From the IMG/VR virus record IMGVR_UViG_2778261420_000015: a stretch of 5,071 nt of DNA. The stretch is one strand, 5' to 3'. Shown here in pieces: positions 1,925 to 5,071 of the stretch (positions are counted from its first letter, which is position 1; each line of letters starts with the position of its first letter). The DNA comes from a virus. Taxonomy: Duplodnaviria > Heunggongvirae > Uroviricota > Caudoviricetes. A model generated the notes under the pieces. It was not told the origin of the DNA. It saw nothing but the letters and a program-made list of their open reading frames with translations, and made no database searches. The position numbers were made by a program, and so were the translations under genes.

Positions 1925-2003
1925 TTTCTTACGTATAAACTGCTTCAATTTTGCTATGCTTCGCACAGCTGTATCGCGAGGCGGATTGCAGACATGGACA
2001 TCG
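1925..2003 (+). promoter_or_regulatory. Candidate late promoter (pR'-like) and Q-utilisation region
   Basis: Interval between the Q stop and the terminator. It contains TTGATT (1921-1926) and TATAAA (1934-1939), but their spacing is wrong for a single sigma-70 promoter, so I cannot pin the -35/-10 elements. Called from position only. Confidence 0.25.
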
Positions 2004-2031
2004 TAAAAAAACCGCTTAATGCGGTTTTTTT
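2004..2031 (+). terminator. Rho-independent terminator, tR'-like (symmetrical, possibly bidirectional)
   Basis: AAAAAAACCGC-TTAAT-GCGGTTTTTTT: GC stem ACCGC/GCGGT (2011-2015 / 2021-2025), flanked by an A7 run upstream and a T-run downstream. Confidence 0.6.
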
Positions 2032-2351
2032 ACGTCAGGAAAGCAGGGGAGAATGCTGCTAGTTGGGCAACTGGTCTTTCTGCTCCAAATTATAACAGAG
2101 ACCAGTTATAGTTTCGGTGCTGTGTTTTTTTTACAATATTGTGATAACACATTGCTGGCGGGAGTTTTGATATTTCTTGGCAGGGGCTGATGATGCGTTA
2201 TCCTGATGTCGTCAACTCATATAAAATGAGATGAGAGATCATTGCAGGGTGGTTTGTAATTCGCTGTTTAGCGGGACAATATGTTGTCTGATACAAGACA
2301 CCCGACGCCTCAGATTACTATAATAAAGACGAAGCATCCTTTGTATTGACC

Positions 2352-2378
2352 AACCGCCTGTTTAGGCGGTTCTTTTTG
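2352..2378 (+). terminator. Rho-independent terminator
   Basis: AACCGCCT-GTTT-AGGCGGTT (perfect 8-bp stem, 2352-2359 / 2364-2371) followed by CTTTTTG. Confidence 0.55.
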
Positions 2379-2908
2379 GACTGGTTTATTGTATGCCAAA
2401 TGATTATTAAAAAGGTTGTGTTAATAACAAAATCCGAAATAATATGCCTGCATATTTTTATCTTGCTTATATTCTGCATATTGTGCATAGCAGGCTCATC
2501 CCTGCAATCAAAACTGTATGATGAGTATTTTTTTTTTCCTTTTTTCCAGTCATCTGATGATGACCTGCTTCTTTTTAATCCGGATCGACATCAGTTTTTT
2601 AAGATAATTCCTGCGAGTTATATGCATAAATACCACAAACTCCGCATTTTATGTGGTTGGGAGTTGCCGGGCGCGCAGTGAGTTTGCTAAGAAAACTCCT
2701 GCATGGTGAATCCCCCTGTGCGGTGGGGTGATACCATTAACCTTTTCTGTCGCCGACAGGTATCACGAACATTTTGTTCACCGGGAGGCACCCGGCACCA
2801 TGCACTTCAATAGATTCTCTCCACATTATGGATATTCTTTCAGAATATCCCACGCAGACTTTGTGTAAATGTTAACAAATGTGCGTTTTATTTGATCTGA
2901 TTCGCTGT

Positions 2909-2938
2909 TTGAGCGTCCAAAACAACGGTATATATAAT
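2909..2938 (+). promoter_or_regulatory. Candidate sigma-70 promoter for the first TolA-like lipoprotein gene
   Basis: TTGAGC (2909-2914), 18-bp spacer, TATAAT (2933-2938). It lies ~30 bp upstream of the 2968 start codon, which has a GAGGA Shine-Dalgarno at 2960-2964. Confidence 0.4.
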
Positions 2939-2967
2939 CCTTTACTATATGACATATGTGAGGAAAA

Positions 2968-3396
2968 ATGGGTTTTCGTAGCGCATCAATTCTTACGTTG
3001 ATTATTAGTGGGATTATTATCGGGTGCACTGATGCTGTATCGACAAATTATCATGACCGTACATCATATTACTCCGATAAAGCAATAGAGACACAGTATG
3101 TGAGTTCATCTGAACGTACTTCTGATGTTAGTGAGGATATCCGTCTGTATGCCCATCAAATCAAGAGCGCCATCGAAAAACAGTTCGGGGATGCGAGTAA
3201 GTATTCAGGAAAAGAGTGTACACTGAGAATGCATATGGCCCCGAATGGCCTTCTACTGGAGGTTAAAAGAGAAAGTGGAGACCTCGATTTATGTCGTGAA
3301 GCGATGAATGCGATAAAGAATGCTGATATACCTGCCCCCCCTTCGCCGGAAGTATATAAAGTATTTCAAAATGGGGTGCTGGATTTTAAACCCTGA
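2968..3396 (+). CDS. Prophage lipoprotein with TolA C-terminal domain III-like fold
   Basis: 142 aa. The N-terminus MGFRSASILTLIISGIIIG-C is a signal peptide with lipobox IIGC; residues after the Cys are T, D. The C-terminal ~85 aa (LYAHQIKSAIEKQFGDASKYSGKECTLRMHMAPNGLLLEVKRESGDLDLCREAMNAIKNADIPAPPSPEVYKVFQNGVLDFKP) aligns by eye almost colinearly with E. coli TolA domain III as I recall it (...YAGQIKSAIESKFYDASSYAGKTCTLRIKLAPDGMLLDIK...ALCQAA...KIPKPPSQAVYEVFKNAPLDFKP), including both cysteines and the terminal LDFKP. Good RBS and own promoter. Confidence 0.8.
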   Translation: MGFRSASILTLIISGIIIGCTDAVSTNYHDRTSYYSDKAIETQYVSSSERTSDVSEDIRLYAHQIKSAIEKQFGDASKYSGKECTLRMHMAPNGLLLEVKRESGDLDLCREAMNAIKNADIPAPPSPEVYKVFQNGVLDFKP

Positions 3397-3546
3397 TATT
3401 TATTGTTTTGTAATAAACGGTTTCGGCTTAGGTTTGTTCTGACACAGCTACGGCACTGAGCTAAATTTAGCGGATAGTCAGCTCTGAGCCAGTGGCGGAC
3501 GTAACAACTACTATTGCTGAGATTTTAATGGATTGAGGAGCAAGAA

Positions 3547-3942
3547 GTGGGATTAAAGAAAATCGTTATGTTGACTTTTTGGGTCGGTTTTGTTGCGGGA
3601 TGCACACCTTTACACCCTTCAGATTGCCACAAAACTACTGCTACAGGTAGTTGCAGTTCAGGACGCTGGGATGATCAGGATGAATGGGGGGCGCAAGCGC
3701 GGGGAATCAGAGCTGCAATTAATGCCAAACTTGATGAGCCGCATAACTGGAAAGGGAAAAAATGCAGGTTGCATATGGAATTCTCTCAGGATGGCACGGC
3801 GTTAAAAATATCTACCAGTAACGGTGATAAAGCCTATTGCGAAGCGATAAAGTCCGCAGCTCATAAAGCCAAATTTCCGGCCTTCAACAATCCGGAAGTC
3901 TACAGAGATTTTCAGAAATCTGGCTTTGACATGCGAGGTTAG
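3547..3942 (+). CDS. Second, divergent TolA domain III-like lipoprotein (paralog of 2968-3396)
   Basis: 131 aa. GTG start at 3547, preceded by GAGGAG (3535-3540). Signal peptide MGLKKIVMLTFWVGFVAG-C with lipobox VAGC. The C-terminal region IRAAINAKLDEPHNWKGKKCRLHMEFSQDGTALKISTSNGDKAYCEAIKSAAHKAKFPAFNNPEVYRDFQKSG keeps the two cysteines and the PEVY..FQ core of the TolA-III-like domain, but the rest is diverged and the terminal LDFKP is replaced. Confidence 0.75.
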   Translation: MGLKKIVMLTFWVGFVAGCTPLHPSDCHKTTATGSCSSGRWDDQDEWGAQARGIRAAINAKLDEPHNWKGKKCRLHMEFSQDGTALKISTSNGDKAYCEAIKSAAHKAKFPAFNNPEVYRDFQKSGFDMRG

Positions 3943-4067
3943 CTCTTCAATTACTATATCTCATTCATAGCAAACTGACAGATTTGATGATGTTCTATAT
4001 ACGAAACCTGTGATGTCAAGTCTGAGCTAATACAAATAAACATAATATCAGAGAAATACATTTTATT

Positions 4068-4092
4068 AGCTCGCTACGGCGAGCTTTTTATA
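4068..4092 (+). terminator. Rho-independent terminator closing the accessory island
   Basis: AGCTCGC-TACG-GCGAGCT (7-bp stem) followed by TTTTTAT, about 100 bp upstream of the holin start. Confidence 0.5.
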
Positions 4093-4193
4093 TTGCATCG
4101 TCTCCAGCATATATATCAATTAAGGCTCTGATTGATGTGTCTGAAAGCCTACACATAATAACTATGCCATCCGTTCCGTGCGGAGGTGAGGCT

Positions 4194-4409
4194 ATGAAAT
4201 CCATGGACAAAATTTCAACAGGCATTGCCTACGGCACCTCCGCAGGCAGTGCTGGCTACTGGTTTTTACAGTTGCTCGATAGAGTAACTCCGTCACAGTG
4301 GGCTGCAATCGGTGTGCTGGGTAGTCTGGTATTTGGCCTGCTGACGTACCTGACAAACCTTTATTTCAAGATTAAAGAAGATAAGCGCAAGGCTGCGAGA
4401 GGTGAATAA
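4194..4409 (+). CDS. S: Class II pinholin, phage 21 S-type, dual-start (antiholin from 4194, holin from 4203)
   Basis: [28 protein letters not shown]...[36 protein letters not shown] matches the S21 pinholin nearly residue for residue from memory. The two starts are M-K-S-M (ATG at 4194 and 4203); the extra Lys is the known antiholin determinant. GGAGG at 4182-4186. TMD1 is Gly/Ala/Ser-rich (SAR-like); TMD2 carries a glycine-zipper. The track's 4137 start is an upstream in-frame extension lacking an RBS. Confidence 0.9.
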
Positions 4410-4906
4410 TGCCTCCATCATTACGAAAAGTCGTTGCTGCTGCTATTGGTGGCGGAGCAATTGCTATAGCATCAGTGTTAATCACTGGCCCAAGTGGTAA
4501 CGATGGTCTGGAAGGTGTCAGCTACATACCATACAAAGATATTGTTGGTGTATGGACTGTATGTCACGGGCATACAGGAAAAGACATCATGCTCGGTAAA
4601 ACGTATACCAAAGCAGAATGCAAAACACTCTTGAATAAAGACCTTGCCACGGTCGCCAGACAAATTAACCCGTACATCAAAGTCGATATACCGGAAACAA
4701 CGCGCGGCGCTCTTTACTCATTCGTTTACAACGTGGGTGCTGGCAATTTCAGAACATCGACGCTTCTTCGCAAAATAAACCAGGGCGATATCAAAGGCGC
4801 ATGTGATCAGCTACGTCGCTGGACATATGCTGGCGGTAAGCAATGGAAAGGTCTCATGACTCGTCGTGAGATTGAGCGTGAAATCTGTTTGTGGGGTCAG
4901 CAATGA
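4409..4906 (+). CDS. R: SAR endolysin (phage 21 R-type lysozyme, T4-lysozyme-like catalytic domain with N-terminal signal-anchor-release segment)
   Basis: 165 aa. The N-terminal [27 protein letters not shown] is a weakly hydrophobic Gly/Ala-rich SAR domain. It is followed by an E...D...T arrangement ([22 protein letters not shown]) matching the catalytic triad layout of R21-type lysozymes. The ATG overlaps the holin stop (TAATG at 4407-4411). Near-identical to my recollection of R21 / DLP12 RrrD. Confidence 0.9.
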
Positions 4907-5010
4907 ACAGAGTAACCGCGATTATCTCCGCTCTGGTTATCTGCATCGTCGTCTGCCTGTCATGGGGTGTTAATCATTACCGTGATAACGCCATTAGACT
5001 GGCCCCCTGA
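4903..5010 (+). pseudogene. Rz: Rz (i-spanin) 5' fragment, truncated by IS2 insertion
   Basis: The start overlaps the endolysin stop (ATGA at 4903-4906). [31 protein letters not shown] is the N-terminal TM anchor of phage-21-type Rz. After codon ~31 the frame runs into IS2 sequence (RLAP-stop at 5008-5010). The embedded Rz1 frame would lie beyond the insertion and is not in the window. Confidence 0.8.
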
Positions 5011-5071
5011 ATCTCCAGACAACCAATATCACTTAAATAAGTGATAGTCTTAATACTAGTTTTTAGACTAG
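4995..5071 (+). mobile_element. IS2 (IS3 family) left terminal region, partial; element continues past the window end
   Basis: TAGACTGGCCCCCTGAATCTCCAGACAACCAATATCACTTAAATAAGTGATAGTCTTAATACTAGTTTTTAGACTAG matches the IS2 left end as I recall it (the bases that follow in IS2 would be TCATTGGAGAACAGATG, the insC start). The junction is ambiguous by 1-2 nt, at about 4995-4997. Confidence 0.75.

Follow-up and report, generated by a model that had tools for sequence, protein, structure and literature searches.

What occupies the roughly 0.9 kb between the gene for a Q-like protein and the next gene, which encodes a lipoprotein, is the question raised by positions 2032-2960 of the window (the whole stretch of 5,071 nucleotides that was analysed). 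A sequence-only reading had treated a non-coding gap of this size as an oddity for a phage, a view that does not hold because in related prophages the part from Q to the lysis genes carries tRNAs, sok, isrK/C4, a cspA leader and as many as four STnc100 copies in tandem. The gap is ordinary: it contains a known small RNA (sRNA) gene, the tail left behind by a tRNA cluster that has been lost, and the promoter that serves the following gene. As a whole, it is likely to be the non-coding start of the late operon in a defective, Rac-type lambdoid prophage of Escherichia coli, composed of exchangeable RNA modules.

The genes of the window encode DUF1367, YbcO and DUF1133/Q-like proteins, two TolA-C lipoproteins, an S21-type holin and a lysozyme. 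The prophage is a mosaic. Positions 128-1986 and 4183-4994 resemble phage vB_EcoS-683R6, in which, as in H1, trkG adjoins the lysis genes, while positions 2680-4410 resemble phage mEp460_ev081 (96.9% identity) and the related locus L029 is 97.7% identical to positions 496-1983. Approximately 450 complete E. coli genomes carry the stretch almost unchanged, and strain 13C1079T (NZ_CP019267) is one E. coli carrier of the locus. Rz is cut by the end of an insertion sequence; since the prophage is thus defective, Q-driven readthrough may never occur in this host.

No credible protein gene was found in the gap, as comparisons with protein families, homologs and related loci were all without a coding signal, in agreement with the sequence-only reading. 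The stop-to-stop frames of at least 40 codons gave no family match, and the pseudogene remnant that had been suspected did not appear. Open reading frame (ORF) 2346-2681 is indeed the sole long ORF. What the gap does contain is inverted repeats: there are four perfect ones (arms of at least 8 bp, loops of 3-40 nt), compared to 0.53 +/- 0.74 expected, and none of 300 dinucleotide-preserving shuffles reached four. The elements previously listed are present, namely a 9-bp inverted repeat (2069-2077/2099-2107), an 8-bp dyad (2728-2735/2759-2766), a second terminator with a perfect 8-bp stem followed by CTTTTT, and T tracts (T10 at 2528-2537 and T6 at 2540-2545). Three further structures were detected: a 9-bp long-range pair, a 9-bp hairpin (2830-2850) and a 14-bp stem (2143-2156/2189-2202).

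The clearest assignment is in the 3' part of the gap, where Rfam family RF02076 (STnc100) matches positions 2671-2857 over model positions 1-206 with 86.6 bits (gathering score, 47; E value, 2.9e-18). The features of this part are as follows; all RNA ends given here and below are predictions from sequence.

2664-2893, + strand: STnc100-family sRNA gene (Rfam match, fold and promoter-like site)
2664-2669 and 2685-2693: promoter-like site, TTGCCG and TGcTAAGAA, with an 18-nt spacer
Near 2700: predicted start of the RNA
2700-2708/2796-2804: closing helix
Within the closing helix: four internal hairpins, including the dyad at 2728-2766
2805-2829: single-stranded stretch
2830-2850 and about 2853-2885: 3' hairpins, followed by UUUUAUUU at 2886-2893
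2909-2938, + strand: sigma-70 promoter, TTGAGC-18-TATAAT (10 of 12 matches in the promoter scan)
2960-2964 and 2968: Shine-Dalgarno sequence GAGGA and ATG of the gene for a lipoprotein with a TolA C-terminal domain

On the late strand, the gene sits after that for Q and before those for lysis. Its predicted fold (-65.5 kcal/mol, z = -3.98) is formed by the closing helix, which is the 9-bp long-range pair of TGCATGGTG (2700-2708) and CACCATGCA (2796-2804), and by the four inner hairpins, including CCGGG-AGGCA-CCCGG, all present in the minimum-free-energy structure. In one internal hairpin, 7 pairs are changed on both sides across copies; several of the compared slices were short at the 3' end, so that the comparison is barely informative on the closing helix, and only this internal-hairpin result was used. 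A -35/-10 pair is at the same place in all copies compared, and that of the window is weak (4 of 6 matches in the -35 element and 3 of 6 in the -10 element, plus the TG). STnc100 occurs in tandem arrays in related prophages, with four copies in L031 and three in L029. The GC-rich terminator of the consensus is absent from the window copy, which instead has a weak hairpin (-2.3 kcal/mol) followed by UUUUAUUU at 2853-2893, and the RNA may therefore run on into the lipoprotein gene.

The GC-richer patch noted in the sequence-only reading is real (0.51 at about 2675-2824 compared to 0.32-0.39 on the flanks). Judged by its match and fold, the patch together with the dyad is an intact copy of STnc100 and not a gene remnant; the dyad was rejected as an operator for the lipoprotein promoter, since it is an internal hairpin of this RNA. 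The suggestion of a small RNA in the gap was right in spirit, and an Rfam scan did return a discrete known family, placed at 2671-2857 and not before position 2378; the two terminators do not bound a single dedicated sRNA locus. The most likely product of STnc100 is an RNA of approximately 195 nt, made in the lysogen, that would bind Hfq and pair in trans with mRNAs, as has been shown for the related PasD and EcOnc27/sRNA103. PasD depends on Hfq and has been confirmed on Northern blots (PMC8550237). It is related to STnc100, and both lie between Q and the holin/lysozyme genes (bioRxiv 10.64898/2026.05.13.724894), while EcOnc27/sRNA103, which binds Hfq, is overlapped by an STnc100 copy located 3' of stx2B (PMC12711010). 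The near-consensus promoter at 2909-2938 would serve the TolA-like lipoprotein gene (Pfam TolA and PHROG 5772 matches); the promoter region is conserved with the gene in L029 (94%) and in mEp460_ev081 (within the 96.9% identity over 2680-4410).

At the other end of the gap, the Q-like gene appears to bring a late promoter and a terminator of its own. Its product matches PHROG 753 ('anti-termination protein Q-like', 6e-79) and, marginally, Pfam Phage_antitermQ (26.4 bits against a cut-off of 26); its likeness to the solved Q21 is confined to an N-terminal motif and is not significant (E value, 0.29). We know of no characterised member of the DUF1133 Q-like family. The elements found next to its gene are as follows.

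1941-1960, + strand: candidate pR' of the DUF1133 Q-like protein (conserved box and extended -10; putative promoter)
1941-1949: conserved box TGCTTCAAT, a possible Q-binding element
1952-1960, + strand: extended -10, TGcTATGCT
1967-2031, + strand: predicted 65-nt leader RNA ending at an intrinsic terminator
2002-2015/2021-2034: stem of the first terminator (core CCGC/GCGG), with T7 at 2025-2031

In an alignment of 19 loci (A2) from different genera, in which the Q homologs are 52-100% identical as proteins, T..G..T.AAT and TA.GCT are invariant, as is a hairpin with a T-run located 50-110 nt past the promoter (19 of 19 loci). The boxes lie outside of the Q reading frame, since Q stops at 1924, and promoter and terminator are found directly 3' of the Q gene and are inherited with the Q type. 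The conserved box is at about -26 to -18 of the predicted start. The candidate pR' has no recognisable -35, and as a possible pause-inducing element the initially transcribed region offers only a TA-containing hexamer near +4 to +9, with a weak -10-like TA at about +6/+7. The leader with its terminator has a fold energy of -26.2 kcal/mol. The terminator at 2002-2034 was missing from the output of the terminator scan because its A7 and T7 pair and are counted as stem. Since the module inherited with Q sits at about 1941-2031, the first terminator, going by its position and conservation, is probably tR'. In the absence of Q, RNA polymerase would be predicted to start at pR' and release the short 65-nt RNA at 2002-2034; in its presence, polymerase would read through all downstream terminators. 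An isrK match at 1963-2031 on the + strand is below threshold (16.6 bits). In L004 and L008, the genes for related Q proteins (83-88% identical) are followed by true isrK in the corresponding place. Otherwise, a permissive Rfam scan of 1930-2700 returned only chance-level matches, mostly driven by terminators, and thus AgvB, AsxR, Esr41 and similar families are absent from this part.

The stretch between the two terminators has a different origin. Alignment with related loci showed what the window has lost and what it has kept: the tRNA cluster maintained by its relatives is missing, while the unit that trails the cluster is retained, partly decayed.

2035-2079: junction DNA specific to the lineage of the window; the closest relative has a tRNA cluster here
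2080-2132, + strand: remnant of the tRNA-cluster trailer, with hairpin TATAAC/GTTATA at 2090-2110 and T8 at 2125-2132
2143-2202, + strand: P1 element, a conserved stem-loop in which helix P1 pairs 2143-2156 with 2189-2202
2159-2164/2174-2179: inner hairpin of the P1 element
2179-2187: invariant motif GGCAGGGGC of the P1 element
2246-2378, + strand: decayed STnc100-like module, closed by the second terminator
2295-2324: promoter-like site AAGACA-18-TATAAT inside the decayed module
2352-2359/2364-2371: stem of the second terminator, with a T-run at 2373-2377

Past its window-like part, L029 carries tRNA-Ile, tRNA-Arg, tRNA-Thr and tRNA-Gly where the window has unrelated sequence. Positions 2080-2132 align just downstream of tRNA-Gly or tRNA-Lys in L029, L031, L032 and L033, and the arms of the trailer hairpin vary in a compensatory manner (GGCTA/TAGCC, GACTA/TAGTC and CTATAAC/GTTATAG). 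The 9-bp repeat at 2069-2107 overlaps this hairpin; it was considered as a terminator or operator and rejected, as the relatives keep the shorter hairpin at 2090-2110 instead. The conserved non-coding unit at 2125-2378, which ends in the second terminator, is preceded by a prophage tRNA cluster in each of the 14 other loci that were compared (L029-L034, L158-L163, L003 and L010), phage vB_EcoS-683R6 still has its tRNA cluster, and the unit at 2080-2378 lies approximately 70-130 nt past the last tRNA. It is found beside unrelated Q types and is therefore not specific to one Q. The copy in the window is orphaned because the window holds no tRNAs; a search with ARAGORN and the Rfam tRNA model found none, and the empty ARAGORN search rules out a hidden tRNA gene.

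On the evidence of these alignments, the stretch from terminator to terminator once trailed a prophage tRNA cluster; the window has lost the cluster, and the trailer is now orphaned and partly decayed. Positions 2080-2378 would represent the tail of such a cluster without its tRNA genes, made up of the trailer hairpin and T-run, a double stem-loop (the P1 element) and a decayed STnc100-like module with the second terminator. That terminator is conserved in L029-L034 with changes in loop and stem. The same part in the intact Rac-type phage L033 has a sub-threshold STnc100 match (22.9 bits; E value, 0.009) that includes the hairpin CGGGAGGCACCCG, of which the window retains only ACACCCGACGCCTC. 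PasD was considered as an identity for the 2125-2378 unit and rejected, since PasD (from E2348/69) is a weak relative of STnc100. A search of the phage collection with positions 2088-2385 of the window had no match, and one with the L030 version of the unit matched two phages.

The P1 element has no family match in Rfam, including the tRNA model. A covariance model of the unit (R1) scores 104.5 bits on the window at 2125-2244 and finds 26 distinct copies on the + strand with 70-122 bits, compared to 22-54 bits on the reverse strands. Pairing in helix P1 stands at 94.6%, and 5 of its pairs differ on both sides; in the inner hairpin, this holds for 4 of 5 pairs. The covariation score is 0.318 compared to 0.266 +/- 0.011 in shuffles, with none of 500 reaching 0.318, in a set of related sequences whose alignment (A6) was fitted to the structure of the R1 model. 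This covariance-model realignment was used in place of a MAFFT alignment (A3), which was set aside because the inner hairpin and hairpin 2 were in inconsistent registers. The window type of the element occurs in 448 of 5,426 complete E. coli genomes and a second type in 400, two sets that may overlap. It is possible, though we hold the view with some doubt, that the P1 element and the unit up to the terminator at 2352-2378 are an undescribed class of functional RNA tied to prophage tRNA clusters. Such a unit could serve as a site for RNase III-type processing or could yield, from the trailer, a regulatory RNA that keeps tRNA and leader RNA apart from the lysis-gene mRNA.

Three other explanations have to be weighed against this account. 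The late promoter and tR' could be the site at 2295-2324 and the terminator at 2352-2378, giving an RNA of approximately 47 nt, with 2002-2034 merely ending the Q gene. The site scores 10 of 12, lies 27 nt ahead of a perfect-stem terminator and shares its TATAAT with L029. In other copies, however, TATAAT becomes TACAAT or AACAAT and the spacing to the -35 shifts. The 2125-2378 unit, moreover, is not inherited with Q, being found next to Q genes of unrelated types and without exception 3' of tRNA genes (four of which separate the same Q from the unit in L029), whereas the 1941-2031 module is invariant beside 19 Q homologs. This explanation is improbable, and the second terminator was rejected as tR' since it ends a trailer unit seen after tRNA clusters. 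Less credible still is a protein gene, real or recently decayed, whether as ORF 2346-2681 or as a relic within the GC-rich patch. The ORF has 111 codons and a membrane-helix-like middle, and some pipelines have named fragments of it 'hypothetical protein', but among 5.8 billion proteins it finds eight fragmentary clusters, all from E. coli, with at least 85% identity and coverage of 35-100%, and neither it nor the other frames match Pfam or PHROG. RefSeq has no annotation at this 1-kb stretch in 25 of 25 genomes among the matches listed. The ORF starts with TTG at a terminator, 6 nt ahead of its stem, and the internal ATG at 2400 has no Shine-Dalgarno sequence. STnc100 accounts fully for the GC-rich patch. 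Most of the ORF falls in sequence that would be a spacer, in which the ORF would be spurious:

2380-2663, + strand: AT-rich conserved non-coding spacer, including T10-CC-T6 (2528-2545) and most of ORF 2346-2681
2549-2564: weak terminator-like hairpin within the spacer

Sequence identity of the spacer is 83% with L029 and 74% with L031, in both of which the ORF is broken by indels that are not multiples of three (one is 58 nt).

The last explanation accepts STnc100 but makes it mainly cis-acting, serving the downstream cargo gene as an insulator or a structured 5' leader instead of as a trans-acting sRNA. Copies do regularly lie just upstream of cargo, namely the lipoprotein gene in the window, L029 and mEp460_ev081 and an esterase gene in L031, L029 and E2348/69. 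The homology with mEp460_ev081 begins at 2680 and extends through the lipoprotein gene, and without a strong terminator the window type could be cotranscribed with that gene. Other copies, however, have a strong GC-rich terminator and occur in tandem arrays with one promoter each, relatives of STnc100 are discrete Hfq-bound RNAs with targets in trans (PMC8550237 and PMC12711010), and a separate near-consensus promoter is located between the window copy and the lipoprotein gene. A mainly cis-acting role is therefore unlikely, and an sRNA gene, a Q-linked promoter and terminator and an orphaned tRNA trailer remain the preferred reading of the gap. This reading is built on sequence families, synteny, conservation of structure and the absence of a coding signal, all of which were observed directly; the transcription starts, termination, Q action and Hfq binding that it includes are predictions.

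The 1-kb stretch, unannotated in those 25 RefSeq genomes, can now be labelled with an STnc100 sRNA, a candidate tR', a tRNA-trailer remnant and a cargo-gene promoter. The DUF1133 family of Q-like proteins gains a concrete promoter and terminator to test, and an unannotated structured element has been found to travel with prophage tRNA clusters. The contents are mostly of known type and the understanding of lambdoid late regulation is unchanged by these results.

The trailer of an operon such as glyW-cysT-leuZ can give rise to an RNA, of which 3'ETS-leuZ is an example, and Daniels and coworkers, to judge by their title, reportedly described RNase III processing sites in lambda late RNA. Like tRNA-operon trailers, positions 2080-2378 are structured and end in a terminator that would close a tRNA transcription unit. 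The resemblance to these trailers and to the RNase III hairpins of the lambda late leader is positional only, and the window unit has no tRNA genes left. Short RNAs terminated at tR' are made by lambda (6S RNA), phages 21, phi80, 82 and P22, and Stx phages (StxS) (PMC7547250). The predicted leader is like 6S RNA, StxS and IsrK in having a promoter right after Q, a short leader and a strong intrinsic terminator, conserved with the Q type. Its predicted length is approximately 65 nt, whereas 6S RNA has 194 nt and StxS has 258 nt before being processed to 74 nt. The leader has no significant sequence match to IsrK (16.6 bits), and its promoter, unlike theirs, has an extended -10 and lacks a clear -35. 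The STnc100 consensus ends in a GCCCCUC..GAGGGGC U6 terminator, whereas the window copy ends in an AU-rich hairpin, a weak hairpin and UUUUAUUU; PasD itself reaches only 38-41 bits against the STnc100 model, and the region of the window corresponding to its reported seed (UGUGAG) is not conserved. Nevertheless, the window copy shares with RF02076 the closing helix CAUGGUG/CACCAUG, the CCCCC/GGGG hairpin and the CCGGG-AGGCA-CCCGG hairpin, and it resembles STnc100, PasD1 and PasD2 of EPEC E2348/69 and EcOnc27/sRNA103 of O157:H7 in its full-length model match, its late-strand orientation, its position between Q and the holin/lysozyme genes and its own promoter-like site.

The window covers the late region of an E. 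coli lambdoid prophage, and the interval under study (2032-2960) lies between the Q-like gene and the lysis genes. The features are as follows:

496-1095: DUF1367 gene
1095-1385: YbcO/DUF1364 gene
1382-1924: DUF1133 protein gene (PHROGs 'anti-termination protein Q-like', 6e-79)
1941-1949: box TGCTTCAAT, the window version of a conserved box after Q
1952-1960: extended -10, TGcTATGCT, window version
2002-2034: hairpin and T7, window version of the module terminator
2090-2132: tRNA-trailer unit, part 1, trailer hairpin and T-run, with hairpin arms that vary compensatorily between loci
2143-2202: unit, part 2, double stem-loop (here called the P1 element) carrying the invariant GGCAGGGGC
between parts 2 and 4: unit, part 3, variable middle
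ending at 2352-2378: unit, part 4, A/U-rich stretch and strong terminator (the second terminator of the sequence-only reading)
2700-2708/2796-2804: closing helix of the predicted STnc100 fold
within this helix: four predicted inner hairpins, one of them the 8-bp dyad at 2728-2766
beyond it: predicted single-stranded stretch, then two 3' hairpins, then UUUUAUUU
2968-3396 and 3547-3942: two paralogous lipoproteins with a TolA C-terminal domain, downstream of the interval
after the lipoproteins: S21-type holin, lysozyme and the start of Rz, in that order

At least 80% of the intergenic sequence 1925-2967 is present in 446 of the 5,426 E. coli genomes searched, and identity is at least 99% in most of 900 matching genomes. 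In all 25 genomes listed, the matching stretch carries no annotated feature. Because trkG comes after the lysis genes in the matching genomes, as it does in the inducible phage vB_EcoS-683R6, the element is of the Rac type. The final stretch searched, about 87 bases (4985-5071), is multi-copy: it occurs at 21,591 places in E. coli genomes, with as many as 41 in one genome, a pattern characteristic of an insertion-sequence end. At about 4999-5071 this element, taken to be IS2 with its left end here, interrupts Rz. Strain 13C1079T instead has an IS3-family element between the two lipoprotein genes (L001 7747-8975).

The features that the sequence-only reading had listed are all present, within a base or two: the 9-bp inverted repeat (2069-2077/2099-2107), the 8-bp terminator stem (2352-2359/2364-2371, then CTTTTT), the 8-bp dyad (2728-2735/2759-2766), the T10-CC-T6 tract (2528-2545) and a GC-richer patch (GC up to 0.51 around 2675-2824). 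It had missed a 9-bp long-range pair (2700-2708/2796-2804), a hairpin at 2830-2850 and a 14-bp stem (2143-2156/2189-2202). Four perfect inverted repeats with arms of 8 bp or longer and loops of 3-40 nt lie in the interval, against 0.53 +/- 0.74 in 300 dinucleotide shuffles, none of which reached four; the density of hairpins is therefore not due to chance. The observation stands, and its interpretation holds in part.

The interval had been described as lacking a credible coding sequence, and no conserved intact protein gene was found in it, as judged by family matches and frame conservation. The 111-codon ORF (2346-2681) has no match in Pfam or PHROG, and a family match was likewise lacking for all ten stop-to-stop frames that reach about 40 codons in 2023-3047. 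Among 5.8 billion proteins the ORF retrieved only eight clusters, all from E. coli, at 85% identity or above and covering 35-100%. Its frame is not kept in L029 (the closest relative) or L031, where there are indels, including one of 58 nt, and no matching open frame. The AT-rich spacer at 2380-2663 is 74-83% conserved in these two loci, which show the same order as the window (tRNA trailer, spacer, STnc100) and retain both the pyrimidine tract and the 2549-2564 hairpin.

The GC-richer patch, previously considered a possible gene remnant, is a full-length match to the Rfam sRNA family STnc100 at 2671-2857 (86.6 bits, gathering score 47, E 2.9e-18) with a predicted fold of z = -3.98. The 8-bp dyad turns out to be an inner hairpin of the predicted STnc100 fold. 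A -35/-10 pair lies at equal distance upstream in every STnc100 copy compared (TTGCCG, 18 nt, TGcTAAGAA in the window; TTGACT, 18 nt, TAAAAA in PasD), an arrangement that fits independent sRNA genes. In EPEC, PasD1 and PasD2 are abundant sRNAs that depend on Hfq; Northern blots validated them, and RIL-seq gave them many partners (PMC8550237). PasD, which scores 38-41 bits against the STnc100 model, is related to STnc100, and both lie between Q and holin/lysozyme (bioRxiv 10.64898/2026.05.13.724894). Downstream of stx2B, an STnc100 copy overlaps EcOnc27/sRNA103, which binds Hfq (PMC12711010); this copy has been detected in vesicles (PMC12370729).

STnc100 also occurs in tandem arrays, with four copies in L031 (3310-4425, 1.1 kb) and three in L029 (3436-3609 and 4331-4793); every tandem copy has its own promoter-like site, but only some have a strong GC-rich terminator. 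Copies lie at mosaic joints too: homology between the window and phage mEp460_ev081 covers 2680-4410 at 96.9%. The left edge of that homology (window 2680, L157 2501) lies at the 5' edge of STnc100. Conserved STnc100 cores may be recombination points that swap cargo modules between lambdoid phages.

Judged by its relatives, 2080-2378 is the orphaned tail of a tRNA cluster; the window itself has no tRNA genes. When E. coli genomes were searched with 2032-2670, every diverged relative had similar sequence soon after a prophage tRNA cluster and ahead of genes for lysis or cargo. The Q of L029 is the same as in the window and is followed by tRNA-Ile/Arg/Thr/Gly; window homology to L029 ends at 1983 and returns at 2296. 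The order in phage vB_EcoS-683R6 is Q, tRNA-Thr, tRNA-Gly, unit, holin, and phage SerU-LTIIb has the unit in two copies. The unit is likewise placed after a tRNA cluster in L030, L031, L032, six further genomes and, by covariance-model search, L003 and L010, so that it stands behind a tRNA cluster in 14 of 14 other loci. Since it is found beside unrelated Q genes too, the unit is not specific to Q.

A covariance model built from 17 variants of the unit found 26 distinct copies on the late strand at 70-122 bits (22-54 bits on the reverse strand), and no Rfam family matches 2080-2378. The long stem of the P1 element, which was checked also on a MAFFT-only alignment, shows 94.6% pairing; both sides have changed in five of its pairs and in four of the five pairs of the inner hairpin. 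The P1 covariation score, from related sequences in an alignment fitted to the model, exceeded 500 of 500 shuffles and all slid controls. From middle to terminator, the long form of the unit in vB_EcoS-683R6 gives a sub-threshold STnc100 match (22.9 bits, E 0.009) that includes the hairpin CGGGAGGCACCCG. The 5' half of this module is missing from the window copy, and the element before the second terminator is therefore decayed STnc100-like. A promoter-like AAGACA-18-TATAAT (2295-2324) inside the A/U-rich stretch is probably incidental; its TATAAT is kept as such only in the window and L029.

Some prophages have a weaker second copy of the P1 element (45-56 bits) on the upstream side of their tRNA genes: L030 (2217-2340), L036 (2589-2712) and L054 (2162-2285). 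The invariant GGCAGGGG of P1 (2179-2187) is complementary, possibly by chance, to CCCCCUG in the first STnc100 hairpin (2718-2724). At 4069-4089, about 105 nt upstream of the holin, the hairpin GCTCGCTACGGCGAGC followed by T5 is identical to L030 3290-3310, which lies 24 nt past the tRNA-trailer terminator there; the cargo block 2380-4060 therefore looks inserted between these two terminators.

Upstream of the unit, 27 loci coding for relatives of the Q-like protein in 20-odd enterobacterial species were compared. All main-type loci share one module directly at the Q gene end, consisting of a box TGCTT(G/C/A)AAT, five bases on TA-n-GCT, usually with TG before it (extended -10), a short leader and, 50-110 nt further downstream, an invariant GC-rich hairpin and T-run. 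Its conservation does not come from coding, because window 1941-2034 falls outside the Q reading frame. This is the layout expected of the Q protein's own promoter and terminator; promoter activity, pausing and Q binding are inferred. The candidate late promoter has no clear -35, and similarity of the Q-like protein to the solved Q21 is not significant (E 0.29). The predicted RNA (1967-2031) is about 65 nt (-26.2 kcal/mol). Short RNAs that start at the late promoter and end at tR', the late terminator, are known from lysogens of lambda, 21, phi80, 82, P22 and Stx phages (PMC7547250). Rfam isrK lies at exactly this place in two loci with Q 83-88% identical to the window's, and window 1963-2031 scores a sub-threshold 16.6 bits against isrK. 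Because the Q-linked module ends at 2002-2034 and such RNAs have precedent, this hairpin, the first terminator of the earlier reading, is most likely tR'. The interval would be DNA downstream of tR', transcribed mostly by polymerase that Q has modified or from promoters within it. After Q 83-88% identical, L004 (3575-3776) and L008 (3588-3768) have a late promoter of another type (TTGACT-17-TATATT), then isrK overlapping the a1/b1 targets of C4, then C4 antisense RNA; close Q relatives thus pair with different downstream modules.

At the far end of the interval, a sigma-70 promoter (TTGAGC-18-TATAAT, 2909-2938, 10/12 matches) lies 30 nt upstream of the lipoprotein start codon and is conserved together with the gene in L029 and mEp460_ev081. 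Self-expressed cargo genes of prophages are usually laid out in this way, and there is no sign that the upstream dyads are operators of this promoter. The lipoproteins, between Q and holin, match Pfam TolA and PHROG 5772 (function unknown); one of the two is 'cell envelope integrity protein TolA' in RefSeq, and mEp460_ev081 carries both as a unit. They could possibly block Tol-dependent phage or colicin entry.

Sequence, synteny and the literature on relatives suggest the following working. In a lysogen, or in this defective remnant, three units could fire independently: the late promoter, giving the terminated 65-nt RNA; the STnc100 promoter, whose product would be an Hfq-binding sRNA of about 195 nt that base-pairs with mRNAs; and the lipoprotein promoter. 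With Q, polymerase modified at the late promoter would read past four terminators (2031, 2132, 2378 and about 2893) to reach the lysis genes. The 2080-2378 segment is a leftover of a tRNA transcription unit, possibly functionless in the window; in phages that keep the tRNAs, the P1 element may be a processing site or a source of trailer RNA.

Compared with the STnc100 consensus, the window copy is without the GC-rich terminator at its 3' end and the substitute hairpin is weak, so some readthrough into the lipoprotein gene is possible. The tRNA-trailer stem-loop is unannotated; both it and the DUF1133 Q late promoter and terminator add new examples to known kinds of element, and the main content of the interval is an already described sRNA family, STnc100.
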